Assembly (NCBI GenBank): GCA_964642485.1
Contig: CAZXPA010000001.1
Coordinates: 1 to 39,459, forward strand
Direction of reading: 5' to 3'
DNA length: 39,459 nucleotides
From: an uncultured Gammaproteobacteria bacterium
Lineage (GTDB): Bacteria; Patescibacteriota; Patescibacteriia; UBA2591; UBA6264
Shown here: in pieces, positions 7,352 through 31,834 of the stretch
Layout: every line of letters begins with the position of its first letter
How positions within the stretch are numbered: the stretch's first letter is position 1
Program-made: the position numbers and the translations under genes
The notes under the pieces: generated by a model
The model's database searches: none
Told to the model about the DNA's origin: nothing
Seen by the model: only the letters and a program-made list of their open reading frames with translations

Positions 7352-8209
7352 ATGATTACTAAAGCAATCATTCCCGTAGCCGGGCTGGGAACTAGGTTTT
7401 TGCCAGCCACTAAAGCTCAGGCAAAAGAAATGTTGCCTTTGGTTGATAGGCCGGTTATTCAGTATGTTGTCGAAGAAGCTGTGGCTTCAGGCATAAAGCA
7501 GATTTTTTTAATTACTAGTCATACCAAGCGGGCAGTTGAGGATCACTTTGATTATAATTTTGAATTAGAATATCGTCTTCGTCAGGCTGGCAAGAAAAAA
7601 GCTTTAAAAACTGTTCACCAGATTCATAAATTAGCCAAATTCATTATCATTCGTCAAAGAGAACCAAAGGGAAACGGTGATGCGATTCTTTGTGCCAAAG
7701 AATTTGTCAAAAACGAACCTTGCGCTGTACTTTTTGGTGATGATGTAATAGATAGTAGAAAACCTTGCTTGGCTCAATTAATTAAAGTTTTTGAAAAATA
7801 CGGTGATCCAGTTATTGCTGTTAAGAGGGTGAGGAAAAAAGAAATTCAGCACTTTGGTTCGGTTAAAGTGGTTGGGCTTGAGAAAAACGTTTATCAAGTC
7901 CAGAAAATTGTTGAAAAGCCTAAACCAGAGAGAGCTCCTTCTAATCTAGGCATAGTTGGTCGATATATTATTACTCCAGAGTTACTTCAAAAATTAGCTT
8001 TAGTCCGCCCTGGAAAAGGGAAAGAAATTTTGCTTACTGATGCCTTTAAGGATTTACTTAAGAGAAGACCAGTCTACGCTTGCGAATTTGAGGGAGATTG
8101 GTATACTTTTGGCAGTAAGCAGAATTTTTTACAAGCTAATATAGTTTTTGGTCTTAAAGATAAAGAGATTAGAAGAGGATTAAAGAGATTTTTGGAAAAG
8201 ATAAAATAA
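7352..8209 (+). CDS. galU: UTP--glucose-1-phosphate uridylyltransferase
   Basis: AIIPVAGLGTRFLPATKAQAKEMLPLVDRPVIQYVVEEA is the canonical GalU N-terminus. The length is 285 aa. Confidence 0.9.
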   Translation: MITKAIIPVAGLGTRFLPATKAQAKEMLPLVDRPVIQYVVEEAVASGIKQIFLITSHTKRAVEDHFDYNFELEYRLRQAGKKKALKTVHQIHKLAKFIIIRQREPKGNGDAILCAKEFVKNEPCAVLFGDDVIDSRKPCLAQLIKVFEKYGDPVIAVKRVRKKEIQHFGSVKVVGLEKNVYQVQKIVEKPKPERAPSNLGIVGRYIITPELLQKLALVRPGKGKEILLTDAFKDLLKRRPVYACEFEGDWYTFGSKQNFLQANIVFGLKDKEIRRGLKRFLEKIK

Positions 8210-8218: not shown

Positions 8219-9595
8219 ATGCAGAAGAATAAAAAAATAAAAATTTTAATTGGACTCTTGATCGCTGTCTTTTTACTGACCTCTGGCCTGGGTTGCAAAT
8301 GTACGCCAAAAAGATTAACTGAAAGGACTCAACCAGTAAATTTAGTTTATTGGCGGATCCAGGACGGGCAAGATGCTTTTTCAGCTATTATTCAAGGATT
8401 CCAAGCACTCTATTCGCACGTCTCCATTACTTATAAATTAATTCGACCAGAGGAATATGAGCAAGCTCTTCTTGAGGCCTGGGCTGAAGACAGGGGTCCA
8501 GACATATTTTCTATTCCTAATACCTGGTTAGGAAAGTACCAAGCAAAAATTTTACCCATAGGTTTATCAAGTGAGGTAGTTGTGGCTCGACAGATAATGA
8601 CAGGGATAACCAAGAAAGAACCAAAAATTATTATAGAAAGAAAAAAAGCTCCGAACATGAGGCAGTTAAGAGAGATTTTTATTGAAACAGTGCCCAAAGA
8701 TATTATAATTAACAATCAAATCTATGGCTTACCTTTATCTTTAGATATTTTAGTCCTTTATTATAATCGAGATTTTTTAAACAGCGCGGGAATTATTAGT
8801 CCCCCTCAGACCTGGCAGGAATTTGTTAATGATGTTAATCTTTTAATCCTTCAAGATCGTTATGGGAATTTTATCCAATCTGGAGCTGCTTTGGGGACAG
8901 CAGAAAATGTTGCTAATCTAACTGACATTCTTTCTTTGTTAATGCTTCAAAACGGAACACCAATGGTTAATCAGAACAACCGGGTAGTTTTTGGCGAGCC
9001 GTTGGCTGATGATTTAGGTTATTTTCCTGGTCAGGAGGCCCTGAGATTTTATACTAGTTTTGCCAACCCCCTTCAAGAAATTTATACCTGGAATAACCAG
9101 ATGCTTAACTCTTTAGACGCTTTTATTCAGGGTCGAGTTGGATTTATTTTTGGTTATTCAGATTATTTACCAATTATTAAAGAACAGGCTCCAAAATTAA
9201 ACTTCGATATTGCCAAGGTTCCGCAAATCAGCGGTTCACTTAGAGAAGTAAATTATGCCCAGTATTGGTTGGAAACAGTTTCTAAGAAAACCAAACATCC
9301 CCATGAGGCCTGGGCTTTTATACTCTATGCTACTGAGGCGCAAAATGCCAAGACATTTATTGAAAGAACCAAACATCCAACTAGTCATCGGGATTTAATC
9401 AAAGAACAATTAGAAGATTTTGATTTAGCGCCATTTGCCAACAGTGTATTAACAGCTCAAACCTGGTATCGAGGGAAAAATTATTCTTTGGTTGAGGAGG
9501 CCTTTCAGGAAATGGTCAAAGACACTTTAACTGGAGAGAAATCTATTGGCGAGGCAATCAGTTATTGTGCTCAGAAGATTAATTTGACGTATTGA
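8219..9595 (+). CDS. ABC-transporter-type extracellular solute-binding lipoprotein (family 1, sugar-like); orphan
   Basis: Lipobox LTSGLGC. YGLPLSLDILVLYYNRDFL and DIFSIPNTW are typical of sugar-binding SBPs. No permease or ATPase gene lies nearby. Confidence 0.65.
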   Translation: MQKNKKIKILIGLLIAVFLLTSGLGCKCTPKRLTERTQPVNLVYWRIQDGQDAFSAIIQGFQALYSHVSITYKLIRPEEYEQALLEAWAEDRGPDIFSIPNTWLGKYQAKILPIGLSSEVVVARQIMTGITKKEPKIIIERKKAPNMRQLREIFIETVPKDIIINNQIYGLPLSLDILVLYYNRDFLNSAGIISPPQTWQEFVNDVNLLILQDRYGNFIQSGAALGTAENVANLTDILSLLMLQNGTPMVNQNNRVVFGEPLADDLGYFPGQEALRFYTSFANPLQEIYTWNNQMLNSLDAFIQGRVGFIFGYSDYLPIIKEQAPKLNFDIAKVPQISGSLREVNYAQYWLETVSKKTKHPHEAWAFILYATEAQNAKTFIERTKHPTSHRDLIKEQLEDFDLAPFANSVLTAQTWYRGKNYSLVEEAFQEMVKDTLTGEKSIGEAISYCAQKINLTY

Positions 9596-9660
9596 TTGTT
9601 GATCGCTTATTGCTGATTGTTAAAAATTCTAACAATTAACTATCAACAATTAACAATTTT
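9594..9660. repeat. Composite ATTGTT/AACAAT-core repeat forming an AT-rich inverted repeat
   Basis: TTGATTGTTGATCGCTTATTGCTGATTGTTAAAAA is followed by TTCTAACAATTAACTATCAACAATTAACAATTTT. The central hairpin is ATTGTTA (9616-9622) / TAACAAT (9630-9636). It starts at the SBP stop codon. Confidence 0.7.
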
Positions 9661-10962: not shown

Positions 10963-10997
10963 CTCCCTCCTTTTGCGCAAACGCGAAAAGAAGGGGG
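10963..10997. repeat. Dispersed long imperfect hairpin, copy 1
   Basis: CTCCCTCCTTTTGCGCAAACGCGAAAAGAAGGGGG. A near-identical copy lies at 22205-22241. Both sit 55-75 nt downstream of a plus-strand stop codon. Confidence 0.75.
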
Positions 10998-11167
10998 TTC
11001 TCGAAAATCTAATCAAAAATTTTTCGGTCTCAGACCTCCAATTTTTGAAAATTTTCGGAAAAAGATATCCACACCCTAAGGTTGACCCCGTGGAAGAATT
11101 TTGATAGTCTAAGTGTATTAGTAATTATTAAGGGCTGTTGTTTAGTTGTTGGTTAAAAGCAACTGAA

Positions 11168-12222: not shown

Positions 12223-12939
12223 TTAATTTCTTCTCAATCGCCATTTAAGTTTTATCACCTCCCTCAAATAGGTAAGCGAGGTTTTAATGATTTTAATTTT
12301 TGTCTTTCGATCTTTTTCCTCTCGCCAATTAACAGGAATTTCTTTAATAGGGAGATGATAATGACAGGCTAAGATTAAGAGTTCAGTGTCAAAAAAAAGA
12401 TCATTACTTTTTATTTTCGGGATAATTTTTTCAACTACAGATTGGGAAACAGCTTTAAACCCGCAGTGGGTGTCAGTTAATTTAAGGTTAAAAAATAATT
12501 TAAGAGTGAGATTATATGCCCGGGAGCAGAAAATTCGAAAAAAAGACCATTTTAATTGACTTTGTTTGTGGTGCCGTGAACCAATAGCTACCTGATAATT
12601 TTTTTCAGAGATAGCTTTAATTAACAGAGGAATAAATTTTAATTCTGTTGACAGGTCAGCGTCCATAAAAATGTTAATGTCAGCGGAATGTTTTTGCCAG
12701 GCCTTTTTAATAGCAGCGCCTTTGCTTGGATAATTAAGGTGAAAATATTTTAGATTGGGATATTTTTTCTTTCTTTGTTGAACAATTTTTAAAGTTTTAT
12801 CAAATGAGCCATTATCAGCAACAATAATTAGCCATTGATAACCTAGAAGTTCTTTTTGACAAAAGTTAAAAAGTTGATCAAGTTTTTGACTAATAATTTT
12901 TTCTTCATTATAGGTAGGTAGGGTTATATTAATAGTCAT
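12223..12939 (-). CDS. GT2-family glycosyltransferase (polyprenyl-phosphate sugar synthase-like)
   Basis: LPTYNEE, IIVADNGSFDKT and the FMDADLST (DxD) motif. 238 aa. It overlaps the upstream gene by 4 nt, indicating an operon. Confidence 0.8.
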   Translation of the reverse strand: MTINITLPTYNEEKIISQKLDQLFNFCQKELLGYQWLIIVADNGSFDKTLKIVQQRKKKYPNLKYFHLNYPSKGAAIKKAWQKHSADINIFMDADLSTELKFIPLLIKAISEKNYQVAIGSRHHKQSQLKWSFFRIFCSRAYNLTLKLFFNLKLTDTHCGFKAVSQSVVEKIIPKIKSNDLFFDTELLILACHYHLPIKEIPVNWREEKDRKTKIKIIKTSLTYLREVIKLKWRLRRN

Positions 12940-14576
12940 AATATAGTTTGATAAATGCTTACTTTTTTATTTTCAAAAATTTCTTCCAAATATTCTTTTT
13001 TTTGAGGCTGGAAAACCTCATTATTTTCTTTGCGAAAGAACAGATAGTCTATTTTATTTGTTTTTAAAAAGGCTTGTTTTTCCTGATCATGATTATTAGT
13101 TTCAAAAAACCAAGAAGTTTCTTGCTTTTTCTTTTTAAAATCAATAGTTTCAACCCCGTGGCCAACATAGGTCTTGCGAACAGCAAAAGCCGGGATAAGA
13201 TTAGCAGCTCGAAGGTCATAACGACTTAAAATTCTAGACTCTTCTGAAGAATTTTTCTTCAACCAGGTCATGGCTTCTATTATCCCTTCAGGAACAGAAA
13301 AATATGGATAAGGAAAATAGGTTAGGTCTTTAGCAACAATGAAAATGTTTGATGAGAAAAAAAGAAAGAAGAACAATATACTCCAGAGAAATTTATTTTT
13401 AAATAGCTTTAATTTCTGGTAGGAAATTCTTTTTTTAAGTTCTTGGTAGAGAAAAAATATACCAGAAGTGGCTAAAATGCAAATAATAAGATGCAGCCCC
13501 TCAGACATTTTTCTTTGTAGGGGCAAGGGGGAGTAAATGAGAAAGATTTGGGCTCCCAGCCAAGTAATTAAAAAAAGAGTTGCCTTATTTATTTTTCCAC
13601 ATTTTAGCAAGTTATATATGCCAATTAAAACTAAGGGTATAAGCAAACCATAGCCGATTAAAAAACTAAACCAGGGCGGGGTAAAACCAGCTGGGGCCGC
13701 CTGACTGATTCGGTGGATGGTCAGCCAATGAGTTGAACTCAGCCACCAGTAGTAAAAAAGAGAAGGTAGGGAGACAATAAAGAGGATTAAACAATATTTA
13801 AAAAATAACCAATTAATTTGTTTTTCTTTAAAAAAAAGAATTAACCAAAAAAGACTTAAGACTAAAAAAACAGTTGGAAAATGATAAGGATGAACCTGGA
13901 AAAGAAAGAGTCCTAACAAGCCGGCTATTAAGGCATATTTGTAGTTTTTGTTTTCAAGAGCTAAAAGCATTAGAAAAAAGATGAGAACAATCAAGATTAG
14001 AGAAAAAATAAAAAGAGGATTAGTATAAAGGGTTAGAAAGGTGATTGCTTCCGGGGGCCATAGATCCATTGGCTGTTGCCGGGGTAAAAAGTTTGATAAT
14101 AGGGGCAGGAACCAGACGCCCAGGCCGCTTGAAAAACAAACTAGAAAAAGACAAATCTTTCGTTTTTGCTTTTTTTTAAATAGAAAACTAATAAAAACAT
14201 AGAAGATAAATAAAAAAACTGGGATTAGAATGATTCTTGAGGCTTGAAAGATTTGAAGAGCTGAGAGATGAAATGCTTTAGCAATTAACCCCAGGGTTAA
14301 AAAAAACAGATTAAGAATAATTCGTGGTTGTGTTTCAGTGGTATAAAGATCTTTAAAAAGCCAATGACCTGATTTGGCCTGTTCAATATAGGAAAAGTAG
14401 TTTGGGTAGTCGACTCGGTTGAGAGTGGAGACAGCCAAGAAATAAGTGTTTTTTGGAGCAGTCAAATAACCATAGAGATAGGGAAGGGTGGTGACAATAA
14501 TCAAAAGAACAGCTAGAATAACAATAAACAGCCTTTCTTTTTGATTAATATCTTGGACAATTTCTTTTATTGTCAT
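12936..14576 (-). CDS. Large polytopic membrane protein, GT-C-like putative glycosyltransferase
   Basis: 546 aa with more than 10 hydrophobic segments and a soluble C-terminal part. Translationally coupled to the GT2 gene. No diagnostic motif was recognised. Confidence 0.45.
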   Translation of the reverse strand: MTIKEIVQDINQKERLFIVILAVLLIIVTTLPYLYGYLTAPKNTYFLAVSTLNRVDYPNYFSYIEQAKSGHWLFKDLYTTETQPRIILNLFFLTLGLIAKAFHLSALQIFQASRIILIPVFLFIFYVFISFLFKKKQKRKICLFLVCFSSGLGVWFLPLLSNFLPRQQPMDLWPPEAITFLTLYTNPLFIFSLILIVLIFFLMLLALENKNYKYALIAGLLGLFLFQVHPYHFPTVFLVLSLFWLILFFKEKQINWLFFKYCLILFIVSLPSLFYYWWLSSTHWLTIHRISQAAPAGFTPPWFSFLIGYGLLIPLVLIGIYNLLKCGKINKATLFLITWLGAQIFLIYSPLPLQRKMSEGLHLIICILATSGIFFLYQELKKRISYQKLKLFKNKFLWSILFFFLFFSSNIFIVAKDLTYFPYPYFSVPEGIIEAMTWLKKNSSEESRILSRYDLRAANLIPAFAVRKTYVGHGVETIDFKKKKQETSWFFETNNHDQEKQAFLKTNKIDYLFFRKENNEVFQPQKKEYLEEIFENKKVSIYQTIL

Positions 14577-14594
14577 TTAAAACTAGAAGAGACT

Positions 14595-16178
14595 ATGTTA
14601 AAAAATAAATCTTTTCAAAATTATCTGCTCTGGTCTATTTTGATTATTGTTATTTTACTAACAATAGTAATTCGGGTTCGCTTGCTTAGCGTTCCCCTTG
14701 AACGTGATGAAGGACTGTATGCTTACATGGGGCAGCTTTTATTACAAGGGGTTCCTTTATATGATCAGGCTTATGGAATTAAATTTCCGGGGATTTATTT
14801 TATTTATGGATTAATATTAGCAGTATTTGGGCAGACTCATGTTGGCATTCATTTTGCCTTGTTATTGGTGAACCTTGCCACAGTGTTATTGCTTTATAGA
14901 TTAGGCAAACGTTTATTTAATAATTGGGTTGGTGTTATTTCAGCCAGTGCTTATGCTCTTATGTTGCTGGGGGTTGGGATCCAGGGTTTTTGGGCAAACG
15001 CTGAGCATTTTGTAGTATTTTTAGCTTTGACAGGAGTTTTATTAATGGTGAAAGCTCTAGATTCGAGCCAATTAAAACATTTTTTCTGGAGTGGTGTGTT
15101 TTTTGGTTTGGCTTTAATTACTAAACAGCCAGGGTTGTTTTTTTTAATATTTGCTTTCGGATATCTTGTTTTCAGATTTTTAAAGAACCGACAAGATTCA
15201 CGGGTTTATTGGATAAGAAAAATTTGTTTTTTTAGTTTAGGGGTTGCTGTAGTAATGGGATTAACTTGTCTTTATCTTATTTTATTCAATGTTTTTCATC
15301 AGTTCTGGTTTTTAACAATTAGATATGTCTTGGAATATGTTTCTGAGATAACATTTTTCCCTGGATTAATTAATTTTTATCATAGCTTGATTTGGGTAGC
15401 TGGTCCTTATCTTTTATTTTGGTTGATTGCTCTTATTGGTTTGGTTTTTCTTTGGCAAGACAAGGAATTACGTTCTCGCCGAGTTTTTATAACAGGTTTT
15501 TTTGTTGCCTCATTTATTGCTATTTGTCCAGGTTTATACTTTAGGCCGCATTATTTTACCCTTTTAATGCCAGCAATTTGTTTGTTAATTGGTATAGGTT
15601 TGTACAGTATTACAAAGTTTTTTATGAGGCTCAATTTTCAGTTAATGAACCCGATAATACTAATTTCTTTAATTTTTGTTATTTTACTTCATCCAATATT
15701 GGTTCAGAAAGACTTTTTATTCCAGCTAAGCCCTGAGGCAGTTTGTCGACGGGTTTATCCAGCTCCTTTTCCGGAATCATTAGAAATAGCTAATTATATT
15801 AAACAACAGACTTCTTCTAATGACAAGATTGCAATTATCGGTTCAGAGCCGCAAATTTATTTTTATTCACACAGACGCGCGGCCACACCATATCTTTATG
15901 TAGATTGGTTAAGAGAAAAGCAGAAATTTGCCTTACAAATGCAGAAAGAGATGATTTCTGAAATTGAAACTAATCATCCAGAACTTTTAATTTTTGTAAA
16001 TCATCCAAATTCATGGGGAGGAACGTCACCAGACCTGGCAGAATCATTAATTAATTGGTTTAAACAATACACAGAAAAAGAATACAATTTGGTGTATGAG
16101 TTAACTATAGATGGAAGCATTAAGCACGTTTCTCATAAGGGGCACCGTTTCTCTGTTTATAGAAAAAAGTCTAGTTGA
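14595..16178 (+). CDS. ArnT/PMT-like (GT39/GT83-type, GT-C fold) glycosyltransferase
   Basis: The first-loop motif PLERDEGLYAYMGQ (DE..Y) follows TM1, with many TM helices after it. ATG at 14595 (MLKNKSF) is preferred, because the track start at 14541 overlaps the divergent gene. Confidence 0.6.
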   Translation: MLKNKSFQNYLLWSILIIVILLTIVIRVRLLSVPLERDEGLYAYMGQLLLQGVPLYDQAYGIKFPGIYFIYGLILAVFGQTHVGIHFALLLVNLATVLLLYRLGKRLFNNWVGVISASAYALMLLGVGIQGFWANAEHFVVFLALTGVLLMVKALDSSQLKHFFWSGVFFGLALITKQPGLFFLIFAFGYLVFRFLKNRQDSRVYWIRKICFFSLGVAVVMGLTCLYLILFNVFHQFWFLTIRYVLEYVSEITFFPGLINFYHSLIWVAGPYLLFWLIALIGLVFLWQDKELRSRRVFITGFFVASFIAICPGLYFRPHYFTLLMPAICLLIGIGLYSITKFFMRLNFQLMNPIILISLIFVILLHPILVQKDFLFQLSPEAVCRRVYPAPFPESLEIANYIKQQTSSNDKIAIIGSEPQIYFYSHRRAATPYLYVDWLREKQKFALQMQKEMISEIETNHPELLIFVNHPNSWGGTSPDLAESLINWFKQYTEKEYNLVYELTIDGSIKHVSHKGHRFSVYRKKSS

Positions 16179-16964: not shown

Positions 16965-18588
16965 AGTTAGAATCTACTTCATAGATTATTACTTGTTCAT
17001 CTTGATAGACCTCTTTTAAGGATTTTGATTTTTTAAGTAGTTTTCCAAATTTTTCACTGCCCTTATCAACTAAAACATAAGAAGCCTGAAATTTTTCTTT
17101 AAGAATCTGAGCAGTCTGGTCGGGACTAACTTTATGGGAAACTAAATCAAGCCAGGTCTGATAAAGATTCTTATTTTTTTCATACATAAAAGTCTGGTCA
17201 AGGCCGTTAATATAGTAATTTTGAGTATTAAAATAAAATAGTTCAGGGAAAATACTCCATTTGCTTTGAAAAACAATTTCTCCTTTTTGAGTGTTATTTT
17301 TAAGCCAATAACTGGCCTTTTGGAGATAATCCAGTGGCCGGCTTTGAACGTAGGAGTTATGGAGTTTTTTAATGCTAGAATTAAGATAAAATCCTAAGAA
17401 AAAGCAGATTAAAATTATTAAAAAAATTGTGGTGATAAAATAAAAAATATTTTCTGGACCTTGAAAATATCGCTTGAATCGATTTTTAATATTAAGCCAA
17501 TTTATTTTTTCTGCTATTTGGCTAAAGATGATTCCACTAAAAAAAATGGCTGAAGGGACAAAGTATTCAATATTTCGTCTGGCTTTAAGGGTGTAAAGAA
17601 GGAAAAAGCTTGAAAGAAAAGCAAAGAACCAGGATGATGTTTTTTGCTGCTTTCTTGAGAAAATAAACCAGGCGAAGGAAATAATCCAGGGGAGTAAAAT
17701 CGGCAAGGTACTAAGGAAGAATGTTTCTGGGCCAAACGGATACCATTCAGCTCCAACCCCAACTTTATTTTGATAATTTAGGAAAGCAATTTTTACTGTT
17801 TGAAACCAATAAAAAGGAATGGTTTTAGGGAAATAAGGATTGATGATAAGGCCGGCGCCTAACCCGAGGATACAAATGGAGAGTAGTTTCAGATTGTTTT
17901 TCGAAAAAAAGTAATAGATTAAATTTTTAATAGAAAATAAAAACTTGCTGATAGAAGTCGGAAATTGATTTAAATTTTTAACCGCATTGGCCAAACAATA
18001 TATAAATACAGTGATTAACATTAATGGCCAGGTGCCATAGATCCAGACATAAAAGAAAGAAAGAATAAAAAGTCCTAAATATTTTTTTCTTAAAATAAAA
18101 TAAAAACCCAAAATTAGAATAAGAAGAGAGATGGCTGGAGCACGAATTAAAGAAAGGCGGAGGAGAAAAGGGGAAACAAGGAAACCTGTTAGGGTCCAGG
18201 GTATGGGTTTTTTTATTCTCAAATAACGGCAAAACCAATAAATAATCAGAAAAACTAAAGCAGCAAAAAAAGCTGTTGCCAGTTTAGCTTTAATTAAAGG
18301 ATCAATCTCTGCTGAAAAAGTATCAAGATTTTTAGGAGTTGGTAATTTAAGGAAAGGAATTAATAGAAAGTGATAGCCAAAATGATGGTCAACAAACAGG
18401 TCGTTATAGGTGGTAAATTGGGTCCAGGGAAAATCATGGATTAATCCTTGATCTTTTATCATCAGAGCCATTTTAGTGTGATAAAAGCTATCTGGGCCAA
18501 GGATTCCGGGCGGATGGAGAACATAAAGGAAGACAATGAAACCGAGGCCGAAAATTAAAAAATAGCCTAACCACGGCCGATTTTTCAT
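16954..18588 (-). CDS. Large polytopic membrane protein, GT-C-like putative glycosyltransferase
   Basis: About 544 aa from the ATG at 18588 (MKNRPWLGYF), with many TM helices. The track N-terminal extension (MTYFVKLLKCYNVI) is simply the translated 8-bp repeat array. It overlaps the downstream GT2 gene by 11 nt. Confidence 0.45.
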   Translation of the reverse strand: MKNRPWLGYFLIFGLGFIVFLYVLHPPGILGPDSFYHTKMALMIKDQGLIHDFPWTQFTTYNDLFVDHHFGYHFLLIPFLKLPTPKNLDTFSAEIDPLIKAKLATAFFAALVFLIIYWFCRYLRIKKPIPWTLTGFLVSPFLLRLSLIRAPAISLLILILGFYFILRKKYLGLFILSFFYVWIYGTWPLMLITVFIYCLANAVKNLNQFPTSISKFLFSIKNLIYYFFSKNNLKLLSICILGLGAGLIINPYFPKTIPFYWFQTVKIAFLNYQNKVGVGAEWYPFGPETFFLSTLPILLPWIISFAWFIFSRKQQKTSSWFFAFLSSFFLLYTLKARRNIEYFVPSAIFFSGIIFSQIAEKINWLNIKNRFKRYFQGPENIFYFITTIFLIILICFFLGFYLNSSIKKLHNSYVQSRPLDYLQKASYWLKNNTQKGEIVFQSKWSIFPELFYFNTQNYYINGLDQTFMYEKNKNLYQTWLDLVSHKVSPDQTAQILKEKFQASYVLVDKGSEKFGKLLKKSKSLKEVYQDEQVIIYEVDSNYVY

Positions 18589-18625
18589 TATAACATTATA
18601 ACATTTTAACAGTTTAACAAAATAA
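18586..18625 (-). repeat. 8-bp-period array (5 units), in phase with the start codon
   Basis: The minus strand reads TTATTTTG TTAAACTG TTAAAATG TTATAATG TTATAATG, and the final ATG is the start codon at 18588. It contains a perfect TGTTATAAT. Confidence 0.85.
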
Positions 18626-18638
18626 GTCATTTAATTGT

Positions 18639-19694
18639 TTATTTGTTAAGTTGACTCTTAATTTTTTGGATTTGTCTAACTGGCGTAGGGTCAACTTTGT
18701 TGAGTATGGCTAAATAAAAACTTATCCAGTCTCCAAGCAGGACCAATGAAATAGTTTGAACAAATTTATGATCACCAAAAATTGGAATTTCTTCCCAGCG
18801 AATATTTTCTTGATCTAACAACTTTTCAAAAGTACTTATAGCTTTTTTGATTTTAGGTTTTTTTTCTAAATCTTCAAAAATTAGAAAAACAATTTCATCT
18901 TTTAAACGCCAGGGCAGACGGCTTTCAATAGAATTGTGGAAAATTTCCGGGAATGTTTCAAAAAAGCAAAAAGTTTTACTATTTTCCGCCATTTGTGTTT
19001 TAAAACGCCGACCAATGCCTGATAAATTTTCAGGGGCAATAATAATTGGCAAGTGATCAAAGATAAAATAAGCCAGATATTTAGCAATGTTCTTTTCTAT
19101 TGGGGTTTCAGGGTAAAAAATTTGATTAAAATTTTTAAGCTGGTCTAGTGAAGGAACGATTTGAAAGTTTTTCAAATTAATCAGGTCAAGTTTTTCTAAG
19201 ATAACTAGAATTGGTATAAAAACATAACCTAGGCTTGCTCGGGCTGGGCCTTGATATTGAAATTTAAAAACAGGTAATTTTTTTTCTTGAGCCAATTTTT
19301 TTAATTTTCCACCCTGAGTAATAATTACAATTTTTGTTTTTTTCTTTATTGCCCCTTGAACACAAGACAGAGTCTCTTGAGTCTCACCTGAATAGCTAAC
19401 TGAAATAACCAGAGTATCTTTATCAACTAAGGACGGCAAGTGCCAGTCGCGAATAATAATAATTGGTTTTTTAAGTTGATCAGTAATTAGGTTCTTAATC
19501 AGTTCGCCGCCGATAGCTGAACCACCCATTCCACTAATAACAATGTTTTTAATATTTTTATAGGCTTGAGGCAGCTTTATTTTCTGGCTTAGATTATAGG
19601 CTTTTAGGCATTGATCAGGTAAATCAGCAATAAAATCAGCCATACCTGATTTATCCAGGTCTTTAATTTTTTTAAGGTCATCAAGAATAGTCAT
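18639..19694 (-). CDS. Bifunctional phosphoglucose/phosphomannose isomerase (SIS-domain)
   Basis: ISGMGGSAIGGE and SYSGETQET motifs. 351 aa, typical of the PGI/PMI family. Confidence 0.75.
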   Translation of the reverse strand: MTILDDLKKIKDLDKSGMADFIADLPDQCLKAYNLSQKIKLPQAYKNIKNIVISGMGGSAIGGELIKNLITDQLKKPIIIIRDWHLPSLVDKDTLVISVSYSGETQETLSCVQGAIKKKTKIVIITQGGKLKKLAQEKKLPVFKFQYQGPARASLGYVFIPILVILEKLDLINLKNFQIVPSLDQLKNFNQIFYPETPIEKNIAKYLAYFIFDHLPIIIAPENLSGIGRRFKTQMAENSKTFCFFETFPEIFHNSIESRLPWRLKDEIVFLIFEDLEKKPKIKKAISTFEKLLDQENIRWEEIPIFGDHKFVQTISLVLLGDWISFYLAILNKVDPTPVRQIQKIKSQLNK

Positions 19695-19774
19695 ATTAAA
19701 TCATTAGAACATTAGAATATTGACGTATGGTAACATTGTAACAGAAATAATGCCTATTGTCTATAATCTAAATT

Positions 19775-19814
19775 ATGTTAGAATGTTAAAATGTTAAGAT
19801 GTTAAAATGATTTT
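19775..19814 (+). repeat. 8-bp-period array (5 units), in phase with the start codon
   Basis: ATGTTAGA ATGTTAAA ATGTTAAG ATGTTAAA ATGATTTT, then the ATG at 19815. ATGs fall at 19775, 19783, 19791, 19799, 19807 and 19815. Confidence 0.9.
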
Positions 19815-20540
19815 ATGAGCGGGCATAGTAAATGGGCCAAGCTAAAACATTTCAAAGGGGCGCTTGACGCTAAAAAAGGCGCTATGTTTACTAAGCTTGG
19901 GCATGCTATTACTATAGCTGCCCGGCAAGGTGGCGGTGACCCAGAATCTAATTTTAAACTGCGCTTAGCTATTGAAAGTGCTAAAAAAGCGAATTTACCC
20001 AAGAATAATATTGAGCGGGCCATTAAAAGGGGGACCGGTGAGTTGGCCGGGGAACAAATTGAAGAGGTTGTTTATGAAGCTTTTGGCCCGGGTAAAACTG
20101 CTTTAGTAATCGAAGCCTTAACTGATAACAAGAATCGAACCGTGGCCAGTTTACGACGGGTTTTTAATAAATATGGAGGGAATTTAGGCGGTCAGAATTC
20201 TGTTTGTTGGATGTTTGAAAAAAAAGGAATTATTAGAATTGCCGATTGTAAATCAAAAGTCCCTAATTTGGAAGAAGTTGAATTAAAGGCAATTGATTTT
20301 GGAGCCGAAGACATTAAAATAGAGGGTGATGAATTAGCTATTTATACTAAGCTTGAAGATTTAGAAAAGGTTAAACAAAAATTAGAAGATGAGGGAGTAA
20401 AGATAGATTATGCTGAAATAGAATGGTTTGCTAAAGATCCAATTGAAGTTGATGAGTCAGTTCAGAAAAAGGTTGATAGTATTTTTGCTGAGCTTGAGGA
20501 AATTTCAGACATAAACGACTACTATTCTAATATTAAATAA
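19815..20540 (+). CDS. YebC/PmpR-family transcriptional regulator
   Basis: MSGHSKWAKLKHFKGALDAKKG is the family-defining N-terminus. 241 aa. Confidence 0.9.
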   Translation: MSGHSKWAKLKHFKGALDAKKGAMFTKLGHAITIAARQGGGDPESNFKLRLAIESAKKANLPKNNIERAIKRGTGELAGEQIEEVVYEAFGPGKTALVIEALTDNKNRTVASLRRVFNKYGGNLGGQNSVCWMFEKKGIIRIADCKSKVPNLEEVELKAIDFGAEDIKIEGDELAIYTKLEDLEKVKQKLEDEGVKIDYAEIEWFAKDPIEVDESVQKKVDSIFAELEEISDINDYYSNIK

Positions 20541-20572
20541 TTGTTAAATTGTTTAATTGTTAAGTTGTTATG
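20541..20572 (+). repeat. 8-bp-period array (4 units)
   Basis: TTGTTAAA TTGTTTAA TTGTTAAG TTGTTATG. The last three nt are the ruvC ATG. TGTTAAATTGTTTAAT is shared exactly with 31835-31866. Confidence 0.85.
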
Positions 20573-21043
20573 ATAATAATGGGTATTGATCCAGGAATAG
20601 CTACAGTTGGTTATGCATTTATTTCCTTAAAGGGTAATAAATTATCAGCGGTTGATTATGGCTGTATTAGAACTTCAAAAAAACAAATTTTTTCTCAAAG
20701 ATTGGTTGAAATTTATAAAGAGTTGAAAAAAATAATTAAAAAATATCAACCAGATAAAATAGCGATTGAAAATCTTTATTTTGCTAAAAATGTTAAAACA
20801 GCAATAAATGTTGGTCAGGCCCAGGGTGTGGCTGTTCTGGCTGCTGCTGAGAACAAAATTCAGATTTTTGAATTTACCCCCCTTCAGGTTAAGCAAGCTC
20901 TAACAGGTTATGGTCGAGCTTCTAAAAAGCAGGTTCAAGAGATGGTTAAAGCAGTTTGTAATCTTAAAACCACGCCAAGGCCTGATGATGCTGCTGACGC
21001 TTTGGCCATTGCCATAACTTGTATTCAAACCAAATCATTTTGA
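20570..21043 (+). CDS. ruvC: Crossover junction endodeoxyribonuclease RuvC
   Basis: MGIDPGIATVGYAF, IAIENLYF and DDAADALAIAI catalytic-acid motifs. 157 aa. Confidence 0.9.
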   Translation: MIIMGIDPGIATVGYAFISLKGNKLSAVDYGCIRTSKKQIFSQRLVEIYKELKKIIKKYQPDKIAIENLYFAKNVKTAINVGQAQGVAVLAAAENKIQIFEFTPLQVKQALTGYGRASKKQVQEMVKAVCNLKTTPRPDDAADALAIAITCIQTKSF

Positions 21044-22204: not shown

Positions 22205-22241
22205 CTCCCTCCTTTTGCGCGCTTGCGCGAAAAGAAGGGGG
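22205..22241. repeat. Dispersed long imperfect hairpin, copy 2
   Basis: CTCCCTCCTTTTGCGCGCTTGCGCGAAAAGAAGGGGG. It matches 10963-10997 outside the loop. Confidence 0.75.
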
Positions 22242-22304
22242 TGCTCAAATTTATGGTAAAAATTTTTGCATTATGAATAACTTAAAATTTTTAATAAATT
22301 TGGC

Positions 22305-23816
22305 ATGAAAAGGCCTTTAAGAGTTGTTCATATTAGCTCTGAAATTTCGCCTTATTCTAAGAGTGGAGGCTTGGCTGATGTGGCTCGATCTCTGCCTCGG
22401 GCCTTACGCCGGTTGGGCCATCAGGTGATAGTTGTCACCCCTTATTATGGTTTTATAAAAAAGAGAGACTGGCCCTTAGAAAATTTGAGCGCTCGATTAA
22501 CCCTGGAATTTGCCGGCCATCAATATAAGTTTGGTTTTAAAAAAGTTATTTGCCCGGATAATTATCCGGTCTTTTTTGTCTGTCAACGAGAATTATTTGG
22601 TTCGCGCCAGAGAGGGGGTTCAGGGATGTATGCTTATCCGGATAATGGTTTAAGGTTTTTATTATTTGATTTAGCCGCTATTGAGCTGATAAAGATTTTA
22701 AAATTTGAGCCTCATGTTATTCATTGTCATGATTGGCATGCTGGCCTGGTTCCTAATTATTTAAAAATAAGGTATAAGAATGATGAGAAATTGAAAAATA
22801 TCGCTACTCTTTTTACAATTCATAATTTACTTTTTCAAGGCCCGGAAGATTGGTGGAGGATTTCACCAGAAAAAACAGATAATGGCAGGGGCTTGCCGAA
22901 AGAAGACTTGGAGAAACTAAAATGGCTTAACTTTACTAAAAGAGCAATTTTCCATGCTGACCTGATTAATACTGTAAGTATGTGTCATGCTCGAGAGATA
23001 ATGACGCCAGAATTTGGTTGTCATTTAGACGATTGTCTCCGGAAACGCAAAAAAGATGTTTACGGAATTGTTAATGGTGTTGATTATGCAATTTTTAACC
23101 CCCAATTTGATTCAGATGTTTATATTAACTATGATGCTGATTCTTTAGAAAAAAAGGTTGAAAATAAATTGATTCTTCAAAAGAAGTTTGGATTAAAAAT
23201 TGATCCAGAGCTTCCTTTAATTGGCTTAGCCAATCGTTTAACCGAGCAAAAGGGATTCAAGTTAATTATCGATCTTTTAGATTATCTTTTGAAATTGGAT
23301 TTACAAATTGCTATTATTGGTAGTGGCGGGGGGATTTATGCTGATGCTCTCCGGGTTACCAGACGAAAACATCCTAAAAAGATATTATTTGTTTCTCCTT
23401 TTAGAGAAGATATTGCCAGGAAAATTTATGCCGCTTCAGATATTTATTTAATGCCTTCCCGTTTTGAGCCTTGCGGGATTTCTCAGTTAATCAGTCTGCG
23501 TTATGGGTCGATTCCAATTGTTCATGCAGTTGGCGGACTCGCGGATACAGTCAGTGATTACAACCCAAAAACTGGAAGAGGAAATGGTTTTGTTTTTACT
23601 TCTTATAATTCAAGAGACCTTTTATTTGCCTTAGCCCGAGCTTTGGAGAATCATCGCCGGCGAGGGGCCTGGCAAACATTGGTTCGTCGAGCTATGAAAG
23701 AGTCTTATTCTTGGACTTTGCCAGCTAAAAAATATGCTGTCCTTTATCGCAAGGCAATAAAGAAACATAGAGACCAATTAAACAATTTAACAATTAAACA
23801 AGCAGATAGAAAATAG
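22305..23816 (+). CDS. glgA: Glycogen/starch synthase (GT5)
   Basis: VVHISSEISPYSKSGGLADV (K-x-GGL motif), HCHDWHAG and PSRFEPCGISQL motifs. Confidence 0.9.
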   Translation: MKRPLRVVHISSEISPYSKSGGLADVARSLPRALRRLGHQVIVVTPYYGFIKKRDWPLENLSARLTLEFAGHQYKFGFKKVICPDNYPVFFVCQRELFGSRQRGGSGMYAYPDNGLRFLLFDLAAIELIKILKFEPHVIHCHDWHAGLVPNYLKIRYKNDEKLKNIATLFTIHNLLFQGPEDWWRISPEKTDNGRGLPKEDLEKLKWLNFTKRAIFHADLINTVSMCHAREIMTPEFGCHLDDCLRKRKKDVYGIVNGVDYAIFNPQFDSDVYINYDADSLEKKVENKLILQKKFGLKIDPELPLIGLANRLTEQKGFKLIIDLLDYLLKLDLQIAIIGSGGGIYADALRVTRRKHPKKILFVSPFREDIARKIYAASDIYLMPSRFEPCGISQLISLRYGSIPIVHAVGGLADTVSDYNPKTGRGNGFVFTSYNSRDLLFALARALENHRRRGAWQTLVRRAMKESYSWTLPAKKYAVLYRKAIKKHRDQLNNLTIKQADRK

Positions 23817-23821
23817 AAAAA

Positions 23822-23885
23822 TTAACTAATTTCCAATTTCCATTTTCTATACCAATTTCTAATTTCTAATAACCAATTTCTAATT
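23822..23885 (+). repeat. Dispersed 64-nt AT-rich intergenic element, copy 1
   Basis: TTAACTAATTTCCAATTTCCATTTTCTATACCAATTTCTAATTTCTAATAACCAATTTCTAATT. It is identical to 35741-35804 except at 2 positions and abuts the ATG at 23886. Confidence 0.9.
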
Positions 23886-25184: not shown

Positions 25185-25224
25185 TTGTTAAATTGTTATA
25201 TTGTTATATTGTTAGAATGTTAAA
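25185..25224 (+). repeat. 8-bp-period array (5 units), in phase with the start codon
   Basis: TTGTTAAA TTGTTATA TTGTTATA TTGTTAGA ATGTTAAA, then the ATG at 25225. Confidence 0.9.
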
Positions 25225-26628
25225 ATGATTATCTATGACCTAATCCATGGCTATCAGCCATTTGATCCAGGCGATCCAGTTCCTGAGTGGATAAAAGGGA
25301 ATTTAAAACAAATTTTTTTACCTACTTCCTTGGCAATGAAAAAAGGTTTAATTCCTCGAGGGGCTCAGCTTCAAGGCTGGACTATTGATGTCTGGTTAGC
25401 AGCAAAAAAACCAATAAGGGATTTGGCTAAAAAAACTTTTAATAATTTAAAAATTGCCAATCAAAAAGGAAATATAGAAATTGGCATTAGTGCTTATAGC
25501 CATCCGATTTTACCAATGCTAAGCAGTGATTTAATTCAAGCCCAGATTCTCTTAGACAAAGAGGTGGTTGAACAGTATCTTGGTAAAGCAACCTGGTTTT
25601 GGCCGCCAGAGGGAGCAATTGATAGACGAGTTTTAAAAATAATTCACCAGACCTTTCCTAATTTAATTTTACTAATTCCCGACAAGGCAATTGGCAGGTA
25701 TAATTTTAGTGGACCAATAAAAATTAAGTTTCCTGACTCGCCCTGCCTGCCTGGCGGCCGGCAGGCGGCCGGCAGGAAAAAGGATTTTCAAAAAGCCATT
25801 GTTTTTAATACTTTGTTGAAGGATTTATTTATGAATGCCGAGGATTACCGGAAAAAGCCAAAATATATTAAAAGACCAAAGCACTTGCCTGATAAATTAG
25901 TCTGGTCACAGGTTCGTCGGATGGTTCATTCTCCTAAAGTATTTTTACAAGTTTTAGAATATTTGCGCTCCGCGCAAAATTCTCTTACCAATTACGAATC
26001 TAAACGAATTACGAATAAATTTAAAAGTGATTGCTTTGTTTTAATGAGGGACTGGGAGAATGCTGGTTCTAAAAGAGGGCTGAGAAAAATAAAGGGAGCT
26101 GTCCCTGAACAGAGATTGCCCCCAAAAGAGATTGGTAATTTTTTAAAATTTAGAAATCAAACCGGCCCGTCTGGCTTTGCCAGGCCAAGCGGGCGGATAA
26201 ATTTTTGCCTGCCCAGTCAATTTAATTGGCAAAGAGCAGAAATTATCCCAATTTCTAAGATTATCCCCTGTTCTTGGGATATGGAATCAACCCCCAAAGA
26301 TCCTTTTCCCTGGTGGCAGCCAAATAAACATGGGGCAGTTTGGCGGAAATGCAAACCTTTTCGGAGAAAGAGAATGATTGAATGGCAAGAGTTAATTAAA
26401 GAATTTAATCAGATTTTTCAACAAAGGATTAAACAGCAAGGAGGGCTAAAAAAAGCTTTGAAAAATAAAGAGTTTAAAGATTTGTTAAAAAGGACTCTGC
26501 CAGCTCTTCATTCTTGTATTGGTTGGCATTATTTTGCTAAACGAGCCTGGAAACCAGATTATCAATATTCTCAGCAGGCCTTGAAGAATATAGTTTTACC
26601 AGGTTTAAAAAGGTTAAAAAATTTATGA
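25225..26628 (+). CDS. Divergent GH57-like protein, paralog 2, carrying GC-rich and low-complexity inserts
   Basis: LIHGYQPF, SAYSHPILPML, FWPPEGAID and LMRDWENAG align loosely with GH57 regions of the flanking paralogs. The middle of the protein is basic and low-complexity. Its stop overlaps the next start (ATGA). Confidence 0.5.
   Translation: MIIYDLIHGYQPFDPGDPVPEWIKGNLKQIFLPTSLAMKKGLIPRGAQLQGWTIDVWLAAKKPIRDLAKKTFNNLKIANQKGNIEIGISAYSHPILPMLSSDLIQAQILLDKEVVEQYLGKATWFWPPEGAIDRRVLKIIHQTFPNLILLIPDKAIGRYNFSGPIKIKFPDSPCLPGGRQAAGRKKDFQKAIVFNTLLKDLFMNAEDYRKKPKYIKRPKHLPDKLVWSQVRRMVHSPKVFLQVLEYLRSAQNSLTNYESKRITNKFKSDCFVLMRDWENAGSKRGLRKIKGAVPEQRLPPKEIGNFLKFRNQTGPSGFARPSGRINFCLPSQFNWQRAEIIPISKIIPCSWDMESTPKDPFPWWQPNKHGAVWRKCKPFRRKRMIEWQELIKEFNQIFQQRIKQQGGLKKALKNKEFKDLLKRTLPALHSCIGWHYFAKRAWKPDYQYSQQALKNIVLPGLKRLKNL
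25741..25776. repeat. In-frame GC-rich palindromic block
   Basis: CCCTGCCTGCCTGGCGGCCGGCAGGCGGCCGGCAGG. It contains an 11-nt tandem CGGCCGGCAGG x2 (25755-25776), and CCTGCC is complementary to GGCAGG. It encodes PCLPGGRQAAGR. Confidence 0.8.
26162..26196. repeat. In-frame GC-rich nested hairpin
   Basis: In CCGGCCCGTCTGGCTTTGCCAGGCCAAGCGGGCGG, GCCCG pairs with CGGGC and CTGGC with GCCAG. It encodes TGPSGFARPSGR. Confidence 0.7.
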
Positions 26629-28676: not shown

Positions 28677-29756
28677 ATGATATTTATTAAAGTTAAAACA
28701 AGGATAGACCCAAAAAAAACCCTTGATAAAGAGTACATGTTTTCATTTTTTAAAAAAAGAGGACAGAAATTTTTATCTATAAACGAGAAATTAATTGATT
28801 TGAAAATTGATTTGATTAGAAATTTCCAAGGTAAATTCAGGAATATGGGTTTGAGATATGAATTAATAATAACCCCTGCCAATTCCCCCTTAAAAAGGGG
28901 GAGAAAAAGAAGGGGCGTGAGGAAAAAGATAGTTCGAGCCAGAATTCACAAATATCAAGATATCCCCAGAAGAGAATGGCGAGTTCTTAATTATTTTAAA
29001 AAAGTCGGTCTAGAAAAAATTACTCCTCGACCCTTAGATTATTTTAAGCCTTTAAACATACTTTTTTATTTAGAAACCCCTGGATACTCTTTTGAAGGAA
29101 TACTTGCCCAAAGAAAGCCAAACATACTTTTAAGATTTGTTCCTTTAATTGCTAAATGGTTAAATCGGATTCATGGTTTAAATAAAAGACTAGCATTTTT
29201 ACCTGTTAAAACCATTCAAGAGGAAAAACGCGAGCGTCAACATTGGTTTTTTTTGGTAAGAAAATGTATGCCGAGTTTTTATCCTTTATTCAGCCAACTT
29301 TTAAAAGAGCTTTGGGGTTTAAAACAAAAAAACAAAGGCCTGTTTTTAAAGCCTTCTCAATATAGGTTGGTTCATGGAGATTTTCATTGGGGGAACATTA
29401 TTAGGAACAAAAATAATTTCCGGATAATAGATTTTGGCACAGCTTTTTTAGGAGATCCTTTGGAAGATATTGGTGGTTTTTTAGCTCAAAATGATTCAAT
29501 GTTCCGCTATTATGCTCCTAGATTTATAAAAAAGAGCCGGGAAATTAGAGAGGTTTTTTTAAAGAATTATTTTAAAAAGCCTTTTTTAAAGAGCCAGAAA
29601 TGCCGCTTGCTTTATTTTGAAATTCAGAAAATATTAGAGATGGCCGCAATTTTGGCCCTTATTGAATCAAATGAAAAAAACAAAACAAGAGGCGTGGCAA
29701 GATTATTAAGAGAGGCAGAAAAAAAAATTAAAATTGTTAAAATGTTAAAATGTTAA
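28677..29756 (+). CDS. APH-fold (aminoglycoside/choline/maltokinase-like) phosphotransferase
   Basis: LVHGDFHWGNII (HGDxxxxN catalytic loop) and IIDFGTAFLGDPLEDIG (DFG plus DPxxD). The substrate cannot be determined from sequence. Confidence 0.7.
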   Translation: MIFIKVKTRIDPKKTLDKEYMFSFFKKRGQKFLSINEKLIDLKIDLIRNFQGKFRNMGLRYELIITPANSPLKRGRKRRGVRKKIVRARIHKYQDIPRREWRVLNYFKKVGLEKITPRPLDYFKPLNILFYLETPGYSFEGILAQRKPNILLRFVPLIAKWLNRIHGLNKRLAFLPVKTIQEEKRERQHWFFLVRKCMPSFYPLFSQLLKELWGLKQKNKGLFLKPSQYRLVHGDFHWGNIIRNKNNFRIIDFGTAFLGDPLEDIGGFLAQNDSMFRYYAPRFIKKSREIREVFLKNYFKKPFLKSQKCRLLYFEIQKILEMAAILALIESNEKNKTRGVARLLREAEKKIKIVKMLKC

Positions 29757-31770: not shown

Positions 31771-31776
31771 TTTTTA

Positions 31777-31786: not shown

Positions 31787-31834
31787 TTTTTGTTTGTTTT
31801 TTCTTCTTTTTTAAGATTTAAAGAGCTCCTTTAT

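Follow-up and report, generated by a model that had tools for sequence, protein, structure and literature searches.

Tandem 8-bp arrays with a TGTT core and an extended -10 likeness in a Patescibacteria contig

We analysed a 39,459-nt stretch of contig CAZXPA010000001.1 (assembly GCA_964642485.1), hereafter the window, in which a first-pass annotation made from the sequence alone had read 8-bp tandem repeats ahead of start codons as reiterated extended -10 promoters giving leaderless mRNAs. The G+C content across the window is 33-39%, and its gene set is typical of Patescibacteria, or the candidate phyla radiation (CPR), with type IV secretion system (T4SS)-type pilins, PBP1, TyrRS, LeuRS, YebC, RuvC, a glycogen/GH57 cluster and RsmA. 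All YebC homologs with a named source are from Patescibacteria or Parcubacteria, and the window's exact proteins occur in one sample only, its DNA in a single Logan assembly. Neither ARAGORN nor Rfam at gathering thresholds detected a tRNA or structured RNA in the window, which rules out a known RNA of these kinds as the identity of the repeats, and the window carries no RAYT-type transposase gene. Twelve arrays of 8-bp period with an invariant TGTT core lie in it, all within 18.5-37 kb (TRF, Tandem Repeats Finder):

18586-18625, minus strand: five units, TTGTTAAA CTGTTAAA ATGTTATA ATGTTATA ATG; TRF 18586-18619, 4.2 copies, 92% match.
19702-19721, minus strand: 2.5 units, AATATTCT AATGTTCT AATGATTT; found by TRF.
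19775-19814, plus strand: the yebC array, ATGTTAGA ATGTTAAA ATGTTAAG ATGTTAAA ATGATTTT, followed by ATG 19815; TRF 19775-19809, 4.4 copies.
20539-20572, plus strand: TTGTTAAA TTGTTTAA TTGTTAAG TTGTTA, making up the whole yebC-ruvC spacer; TRF 20539-20570, 4.0 copies.
23775-23801, minus strand (reverse-oriented): CAATTAAACAATTTAACAATTAAACAA, within the last codons of the glycogen synthase gene.
25185-25224, plus strand: TTGTTAAA TTGTTATA TTGTTATA TTGTTAGA ATGTTAAA, followed by ATG 25225 of GH57b; TRF 5.0 copies.
29724-29773, plus strand: covers the last 8 codons and the stop of an APH-family kinase gene and ends at the PHP ATG 29773; TRF 29728-29769, 5.1 copies.
31833-31868, plus strand: TTGTTAAA TTGTTTAA x2, overlapping the LysM/CHAP stop; TRF 4.5 copies.
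35348-35383, minus strand (reverse-oriented): C-type units ACATTGGA ACATGAGA ACATTAGA ACATTGGA ACAT inside LeuRS.
36146-36177, plus strand: AATCGTTT AATCGTTA AATTGTTA AATTGTTA inside the RsmA variable loop.
36718-36753, minus strand (reverse-oriented): C-type units encoding the RsmA C-terminus (TLEHENMRT and stop).
36788-36828, plus strand: AATGTTCC x2, AATGTTAA x2, AATGATTT, then TT and ATG 36831; TRF 36788-36823, 4.5 copies.

Tandem Repeats Finder thus recovered, within a few bases, every array that the first-pass annotation had named, and added four (23775-23801, 35348-35383, 36146-36177 and 36718-36753). The 8-nt periodicity stood far above chance and was the sole one in a self-match scan, which gave nine regions at period 8 and none at periods 5-7 and 9-12. 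The pattern TGTT-N4-TGTT-N4-TGTT matched 21 times compared to 0.02 expected from shuffles, and three consecutive TGTTANAW units matched 6 times (0.00 expected). Positions outside TGTT drift between units (AAAA, AAAT, ATAT, AGAA, TAAT, CCAA, CTAA, CTCA). Single TGTTA, TGTTAA, ATGTT and similar words outside the arrays occur only at expectation, which rules out an uptake-sequence-like motif spread genome-wide. The arrays show the head-to-tail copies of one short unit, beyond chance, that characterise a slippage-prone simple sequence repeat. Copying between loci, beyond local slippage, is also likely, since stretches of 22-27 nt are identical in three arrays (20538, 23775 and 31833; 23775-23801 is 100% complementary to 31842-31868 over 27 nt and to 20538-20559 over 22 nt) and the LeuRS and RsmA coding arrays carry the same coding repeat.

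The arrays are not oriented at random with respect to the genes they touch. TGTT-sense arrays lie at 5' ends in 7/8 cases and AACA-sense arrays at 3' ends or inside genes in 4/4 (Fisher p about 0.01), and six arrays are intergenic, end 0-10 nt ahead of a start codon, point toward it and have no Shine-Dalgarno (SD) sequence. Equal use of both orientations had been named beforehand as an outcome that would speak against promoters; a bias toward 5' ends was seen instead, although four of the twelve arrays are reversed, at gene 3' ends or within genes. The array at 31833-31868 points opposite to both flanking minus-strand genes, as the first-pass annotation had cautioned (31835-31866). We consider it improbable that the arrays are merely neutral or selfish long simple-sequence repeats, produced by slippage and patchy gene conversion at low-constraint sites (spacers, protein tails, variable loops), with the promoter likeness a side effect of the seed. 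Such an origin would accommodate the copies in coding loops and tails, reversed or at 3' ends, the identical stretches at the three loci, the relatives that lack arrays and the unit types that differ between lineages at the same junction. Repeats with units of 5-11 nt are already known to occur sporadically in particular lineages (Mrazek 2007, as summarised in PMC4679880), and (TTGTTAnA)n and (TGTTAAAA)n runs are spread over many phyla and contexts, most of them without an adjacent long open reading frame (ORF) among the matches listed. Only period 8 with a TGTT core has been amplified, however, with no enrichment of single motif copies, and the polarity relative to genes argues against fully neutral repeats, as do arrays in phase with start codons in several genomes and a yebC leader that keeps its 30-nt length and quasi-periodicity in four lineages.

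The unit itself resembles a promoter element. Units of the TGTTA type contain hexamers with the -11 A and the -7 T (TAAAAT, TAGAAT, TATAAT, TAAATT), and the TG lies one base upstream of the hexamer; 12 of the 15 intergenic TGnTAnnnT sites of the window (at least 5/6 matches) are in arrays. We used YebC homologs to obtain syntenic relatives of the window genome, namely L121 (83% YebC identity) and L123, L124, L125, L126, L127 and L129 (75-77%). In array-free relatives, TGnTAnnnT (at least 5/6 to TATAAT) reaches an intergenic density 7-9 times that of coding sequence, and the sites mostly point at a start 7-37 nt away. On the strength of this enrichment and of the alignment of the first yebC unit described below, the A-rich octamer (TGTTAnAA followed by T) is, by sequence comparison, the predicted extended -10 element of the clade. 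A generic scan for -35/-10 pairs in the window performed at chance (62 matches versus 60.5 expected). Self-contained -35/-10 promoters inside an array were rejected because TTGTTA lies 14 or 22 bp from a -10-like hexamer, not 16-18 bp, and LexA boxes (GAAC-N4-GTTC) were rejected for the C-type units because their half-sites are direct, not inverted.

Extended -10 promoters need no -35 box and initiate about 7 nt downstream of the hexamer. We scanned about 200 kb of mixed Patescibacteria loci, arrays excluded, for an extended -10 followed by the ATG of an ORF of at least 80 aa. The spacing was 6-7 nt in 9/32 cases (binomial p = 1.6e-5), compared to 7/109 for hexamers without TG in the same loci (no 6-7 nt peak, p = 0.28), and in Bacteroidota control loci the spacing was flat with no peak at 6-7 nt. 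The enrichment of a 6-nt spacing on which the earlier interpretation depended is therefore present, at 6-7 nt, in this sample of loci rather than across a whole genome, and a leaderless layout driven by the extended -10 appears from these spacings to be common in the phylum. Two array-free genes of the window had been said to have the 6-nt spacing, and both read as stated: tyrS (TTGATT-16-TAAACT-6-ATG, in a 41-nt divergent spacer) and pilin-2 (TATTAT-6-ATG).

Within the arrays, the claim that the hexamer ends 6 nt before the ATG was correct at 18588 (with TGTTATAAT inside the array), at 19815 (TGTTAAAAT at 19800-19808, the last extended -10 of the yebC array) and at 25225 (TGTTAGAAT), and incorrect at 29773 (5 nt after the last TGTTAAATT), at 36831 (8 nt after the last TGTTAAAAT, in an array 2 nt out of phase) and at 20570 (3 nt). 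The start ATG had also been described as simply the next unit. ATGs are indeed spaced every 8 nt from 19775 through 19815 and stand at 18588, 18596 and 18604 on the minus strand, but ahead of GH57b only 25217 and 25225 are ATGs, and the four earlier units open with TTG. The GH57b array is preceded by the hairpin TTCACGGCCGTGAA and holds the only -10-like elements of its spacer; the same junction measures 7 nt in L125 and 56 nt in L123. A leaderless reading is plausible, from element and spacing, for the last unit at 19815, 25225, 29773 and 36831.

The divergent PGI/yebC spacer allowed us to compare arrays with promoters in the relatives. Two elements of it are conserved:

19755-19764, no strand assigned: block ATTGTCTAT, conserved in a five-genome alignment and containing back-to-back -35-like hexamers for the PGI and yebC promoters.
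19735-19743, minus strand: conserved PGI extended -10 TGTTACAAT, 40 nt ahead of the ATG, with a -35-like TAGACA at 19763-19758.

The yebC -35-like hexamer is TTGTCT at 19757-19762 (plus strand), and the conserved TTGTnT lies 16-17 bp from the extended -10 in the five genomes (16 in the window); TACAATGTTA at the PGI promoter is conserved in L121 and L123. The first extended -10 of the yebC array (TGTTAGAAT, 19776-19784, 30 nt ahead of the ATG) aligns exactly with TGATATAAT, TGTTATAAT and TGATATGAT of four relatives, and the L123 yebC leader ATGTTAAAACGTTAAATTAATTTTATG is a decayed copy of the window array. By this alignment, the site at which the yebC array begins is the putative ancestral promoter. 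As the yebC and PGI promoters are upstream, part of the arrays is likely transcribed from them, and the PGI array probably belongs to the 5' leader, given that the conserved PGI extended -10 precedes it. By the 8-nt register, a transcript from the ancestral yebC promoter would likewise start at an in-phase AUG (19791), which opens MLRC-stop with the stop 9 nt ahead of the real yebC start. In L121, a 34-nt GC-rich palindrome (CCCAGTAGTAGAGCAGAGCTCACTACAGGGCAGG, 7411-7444) lies between two CATTAAAA copies, exactly where two CATTAGAA units abut in the window; either an insertion that duplicated 8 bp or chance could account for this.

Across the syntenic 20 kb, the number of such arrays in the relatives is 0 or 1. 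The comparison of unit copy number at orthologous spacers that the first-pass annotation had proposed gave 0, 1.5, 3 or 4 units of differing type at the yebC-ruvC junction: ATGTTAAA x3 fills the spacer in phase with ruvC in L129, L124 has TTTTAATG x4, and L123, L125, L126 and L127 have no array there. Different arrays at the same junction across lineages are as expected of slippage-prone repeats. An IS605 OrfB/TnpB-like gene (20200-20726) adjoins the syntenic block in L129, which also has 7-nt arrays of the unrelated units TTTCGGA and AAGGTCA at 4968-5007 and 19574-19613.

Several observations weigh against the arrays being, as a class, leaderless promoters. The extended -10 lies 30 nt ahead of the yebC ATG in the window, L121, L123 and L129, 23 nt in L124 and 37 nt in L125, and 16-40 nt ahead of the PGI ATG in the relatives and the window, except for 7 nt in L124. 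The orthologous promoters thus imply leaders of 17-31 nt, the 6-7 nt spacing is not conserved across orthologs, and the yebC and PGI genes were presumably leadered in ancestry, given extended -10 elements 23-40 nt ahead of the ATG; moreover, the yebC spacer of the window is no longer than those of the relatives. The PGI array consists of TGTTCTAAT units with C at -11, and its phase is offset by 2 nt from the PGI start at 19694. TGTTC-type units without the -11 A (TCTAAT, TCCAAT, TCTCAT) make up this array (19702), those at 35348 and 36718 and the first half of that at 36788, and the ruvC array is out of register with its start. The 18586 array is probably not upstream of a start at all. A minus-strand ORF for a 558-aa membrane protein reads in frame through it to ATG 18630, which is 8 nt from the PGI stop (0-13 nt in relatives) and leaves 19 residues ahead of the conserved WLGYF motif, exactly as in L121, the closest ortholog; with the open frame, the gene spacing and the N-terminal length all matching relatives, the array would form the first 14 codons of the gene.

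The arrays at 18586 and 29724 occupy joints that overlap or are 3-13 nt apart in the relatives; the kinase and PHP genes overlap (ATGA) in L124 and L125, and the kinase has the same length as in relatives. Arrays are also coding in a loop of LeuRS (35348, encoding TLEHENIRTLEH in the variable loop), in a loop of RsmA and in the C-termini of RsmA, glycogen synthase and the APH-family kinase. Compared to solved LeuRS and KsgA structures and orthologs, these coding arrays cause no change in protein length, which is awkward for simple expansion, and the alignments rule out net insertions into genes. In other genomes, arrays lie within the rpsH-rplF and rplC-rplD joints of conserved operons, and where genes lie in tandem, the upstream member of an inverted pair faces a 3' end. 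The leaderless reading cannot cover a third of the copies. Of the original reading as reiterated leaderless promoters, then, the extended -10 match stands, while a leaderless ancestry for yebC and PGI does not, and the reversed and coding copies are left outside it.

Translation starts were compared over 89 genes of the window and the relatives. Positions -12 to -4 are poor in G, A is enriched from -11 to -8, T occupies -1 in 62%, and an SD-like 4-mer occurs at 10/89 starts. The near-absence of SD sequences that had been adduced for leaderless messages is therefore real, but operon-internal cistrons with 9-25 nt gaps lack them too; the absence is general and by itself no argument for leaderless messages, one more point against that reading. 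The anti-SD motif has been seen in only 48% of Parcubacteria 16S sequences, with 52% lacking it (PMC9297842). The sole strong SD of the window, AAGGAGT (GGAAGGAGT at 31771-31790, 5 nt ahead of the ATG), belongs to a BNR/sortilin-like gene (30772-31770, minus strand) and may mark a foreign gene. In-array ATGs had been said to open mini-ORFs of only 3-5 codons. We found MLKC-stop and MLK-stop as described, and also MIL-stop, with ATG 36821, which opens 24 codons, as the exception; in the 19702 array the upstream ORFs (uORFs) MF-stop and MI-stop end at -9 and -1, and with a single exception the uORFs terminate within -25 to +4 relative to the real AUG.

These features bear on the possibility, which we regard as real if on balance doubtful, that the arrays are transcribed parts of leaders and intercistronic regions that aid SD-independent translation by hairpin or uORF coupling. 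They would offer landing sites that are rich in A/U, poor in G, free of C and unstructured, to which ribosomal protein S1, for example, could bind. The uORFs of 2-4 codons begun at their in-phase AUGs would terminate on or beside the real AUG, allowing reinitiation, and pairing with an inverted array placed behind the preceding stop would give a long hairpin that joins stop to start or couples cistrons. The SD-poor starts, operon-internal genes included, and the many 16S sequences without an anti-SD are in line with this, as are the positions of the uORF ends, the conserved promoters that precede the PGI array and coincide with the first yebC unit (so that later units would be transcribed), the arrays at operon-internal joints such as rplC-rplD and rpsH-rplF, and stop-to-start hairpins of -27 to -43 kcal/mol (z-scores -3.2 to -6.4); a like proposal has been made for TAACTGA heptamer repeats (PMC4679880). 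Multiple upstream AUGs, however, normally compete with the true start, no known translation element fits the units as well as an extended -10 does, the 6-7 nt peak appears only with hexamers that carry TG, and reversed or coding copies would go unexplained.

We folded spacers from the window and from metagenomes. Three of four tested metagenome spacers fold into long imperfect hairpins (-33 to -43 kcal/mol, z -3.2 to -6.4) and the fourth folds no better than shuffles, which also counts against a general role of hairpins in translation. The single inverted pair of the window, between RsmA and gene 36831, has the 36718 array as the 5' arm and 36788-36825 as its partner (36705-36840, -27.1 kcal/mol, z = -3.7). 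In several metagenome spacers an AACAT-type array starts at the upstream stop and a TGTT array ends at the next start; L211 and L194 (rpsH-rplF spacers) and L142 have hairpins of 30-35 near-perfect bp made of inverted octamer arrays, with stop and start at the stem base. Among the matches listed, the inverted partner of ATGTT-type arrays is upstream in 18 cases and downstream in 2, that of TTGTT-type arrays downstream in 14 and upstream in 0, and 100/120 ATGTT-type arrays have no inverted partner; this solitariness of most arrays is a further difficulty for coupling by hairpins.

The wider distribution is sporadic. Among the matches listed, three-unit TGTTANAW runs in GTDB representatives are mostly from Bacteroidota, with others from Patescibacteria, gammaproteobacterial metagenome-assembled genomes and elsewhere; the TTGTTAnA type dominates, and arrays abutting starts do so more often in the opposite orientation (...AACAATG). 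Bacteroidota (TTGTTAAA)n, (TTGTTATA)n and (TTGTTACA)n arrays reach at least 16 copies, occur in cultured Chryseobacterium, Bergeyella, Mariniflexile and Anaerophaga (L002-L120), several per genome and even in G+C-rich contexts, and often abut a start in this opposite orientation. Among the metagenome matches listed for (TGTTAAAA)3, most have no adjacent long ORF; ORFs were called in fetched loci with the standard code and a minimum length, so that this class includes truncated contigs and possibly recoded lineages. Where an (TGTTAAAA)n array has a long-ORF ATG at most 10 nt away, it is in phase in 12/15 unique cases (among the matches listed). Arrays in CPR metagenome contigs serve rplD, rplF, rpsT, infC, holB, tsaD, ruvC and a T4SS coupling protein gene, and those at rplD, rplF, infC and ruvC are in phase with the start; the terminus TGTTAAAATGATTT(T), present twice in the window, recurs in several contigs of one sample, and one 10.6-kb metagenome contig carries six arrays of mixed unit types.

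A very unlikely explanation, in our judgement, is that the arrays are cooperative double-stranded DNA sites for a lineage-specific protein that recognises TGTT/AACA every 8 bp and regulates or organises the flanking genes, on the model of ribbon-helix-helix repressors or centromere-binding proteins that coat direct or inverted heptad arrays. It would suit an invariant TGTT amid four drifting positions, the genome-by-genome distribution, and the use of both orientations together with inverted pairs of fixed geometry (18 versus 2 and 14 versus 0 among the matches listed). It predicts neither the start-directed orientation bias nor the ATG phase; arrays inside essential coding regions would be odd operators, the same duplex sequence is oppositely oriented to genes in Bacteroidota, and no candidate protein was identified.

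We hold with moderate confidence that the arrays are a slippage-prone, lineage-amplified octamer repeat family built on an extended -10/start-codon cassette. The founding unit would be the clade's cassette, TGTTAAAAT-GATTTT-ATG. A G after TGnTAnAAT regenerates both ATG and the following TG, so that tandem copying by 8 bp would preserve the register; for each unit, taken as an extended -10, the predicted +1 lies 7 nt downstream and falls on the A of the ATG located two units further along. At the A-rich TGTT-sense arrays of yebC (19815), GH57b (25225), PHP (29773) and gene 36831, RNA polymerase would use these -35-independent units, the last of them giving a leaderless mRNA or one with a 1-2 nt leader, and upstream units or an ancestral promoter with a -35 giving short leaders that begin with tiny uORFs whose ends fall on or beside the real AUG. 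Whole-unit slippage would change copy number and leave the distance from the last unit to the ATG unchanged, so that arrays could grow and shrink harmlessly. Copies made of non-promoter units, reversed copies and those in coding tails and loops would be by-products of slippage and patchy copying between arrays, some of them forming inverted pairs that fold as hairpins. We infer the initiation by polymerase, the leaderless mRNAs and the role of slippage as generator from sequence.

A more elaborate form of this explanation, which strikes us as unlikely, makes the octamer a self-phased expression device for ribosomes that do without SD pairing, every unit being both extended -10 and start codon. 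Whichever unit polymerase used, the transcript would begin with AUG; a 70S ribosome would load on a leaderless 2-4 codon mini-ORF, terminate 1-4 nt from the next in-phase AUG and be relayed to the start. At operon joints, an inverted array after the upstream stop and a start-proximal array would form a long hairpin that brings the stop beside the start. The terminating ribosome would then be passed over more than 100 nt of spacer, or cleavage by RNase III would yield a near-leaderless downstream message.

The window and its relatives yield testable rules: TGTTAnAAT as the consensus of the extended -10, 6-7 nt between promoter and ATG, SD-less starts with A at -11 to -8 and T at -1, and a family of repeats in which these signals are stacked in register. 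If the arrays do act as promoters or ribosome-loading sites, simple slippage could create and tune expression signals in very small genomes, and gene-start calling in CPR genomes would improve, the 558-aa gene being a case in which an array confuses the start call. If they are inert, they would still mark a lineage-specific repeat-generating process parallel to the unexplained TAACTGA repeats.

Other repeats and a short spacer were observed in the window. A 74-nt dispersed repeat (23812-23885 and 35731-35804, 95% identical) is nearly G-free and built of 7-nt units AATTTCC/AATTTCT; both copies begin in the last codons of the upstream gene, one ends exactly at the GH57 start 23886 and the other ends 38 nt ahead of the rsmA start. 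At 9593-9658, between a solute-binding protein gene and the first pilin gene, two inverted arrays of 7-nt period (TGATTGT-type, then TAACAAT-type) share the ATTGTT/AACAAT core with the octamers and fold into a hairpin (-16.9 kcal/mol, z = -3.0). Two copies of the palindrome ATGTTCAACCCCGGGGTTGAACAT were seen (950-977 and 1725-1770, 96% complementary), one inside ORF 904-1716 and the second adjoined by tandem 13-mers AGAACATGTTCAA; the arms of the palindrome resemble C-type octamer units. GC-rich dispersed repeats lie at 10975-11023 and 22219-22267 (GCGC..GCGCGAAAAGAAGGGGGT) and at 26089-26131 and 36587-36629 (GGGGACTGTCCCC), with a 17-nt tandem at 36589-36621 inside rsmA. The divergent genes 12936-14576 (minus strand) and 14595-16178 (plus strand) are separated by only 18 nt (14577-14594), so that either both promoters must lie within the opposite gene or the leaders must be very short.

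In the library searched, our literature searches with octamer strings, and for leaderless or promoter work in Patescibacteria/CPR, returned nothing, transcription start evidence for the phylum included. Extended -10 (TGn) sigma-70 promoters drive leaderless mRNAs in Actinobacteria, Deinococcus and archaea; PMC4633059 is a mycobacterial example. The arrays share with them the TG one base upstream of TAnnnT, a predicted independence of a -35, a hexamer 6-7 nt before the ATG and the lack of an SD, and differ in that the element is reiterated head to tail 3-5 times at 8 bp with a start codon in each copy. Repetitive extragenic palindromic (REP) and bacterial interspersed mosaic element (BIME)-like elements are small dispersed palindromes and intercistronic hairpins. 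Here, too, spacers repeatedly contain inverted array pairs, and palindromes with a GC core and ATGTTC/GAACAT arms, that fold stably, whereas the arms consist of 8-nt periodic units able to pair in several registers and most arrays are solitary. The NusB/E boxA, PUF-type 8-nt RNA sites and the ACAAUUAC repeats of the tobacco mosaic virus omega leader we take to be look-alikes only.

The phenomenon closest to the octamers among those described is that of the TAACTGA heptamers, direct repeats found in marine Beggiatoaceae, in Cyanobacteria and in some Bacteroidetes (MacGregor 2015, PMC4679880). They are likewise short, tandem and mostly intergenic, point to a start within a few nt without an SD, occur in ribosomal-protein operons and occasionally inside ORFs or reversed after stops, and have a sporadic, lineage-specific distribution and a function that is proposed only. 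Strains differ in them by whole-unit insertions and deletions (PMC4679880). Their 7-nt unit is unrelated to the 8-nt TGTT-core octamers and their hosts differ; TAACTGA carries neither a promoter-like sequence nor a start codon, which is why a post-transcriptional binding site was proposed for it. Long simple sequence repeats with 5-11 nt units in scattered lineages (Mrazek et al. 2007) and the promoter or 5'-untranslated-region repeats of the phase-variable Moraxella genes UspA1 and UspA2, both as summarised in PMC4679880, resemble the octamers, as far as that summary goes, in having short tandem units, a scattered distribution, presumed slippage and a position between promoter and start. According to the same summary, copy number at the phase-variable genes, which encode surface antigens, shifts spacing and switches expression, whereas the octamer arrays stand at housekeeping genes and the distance from the last unit to the ATG would be unchanged.

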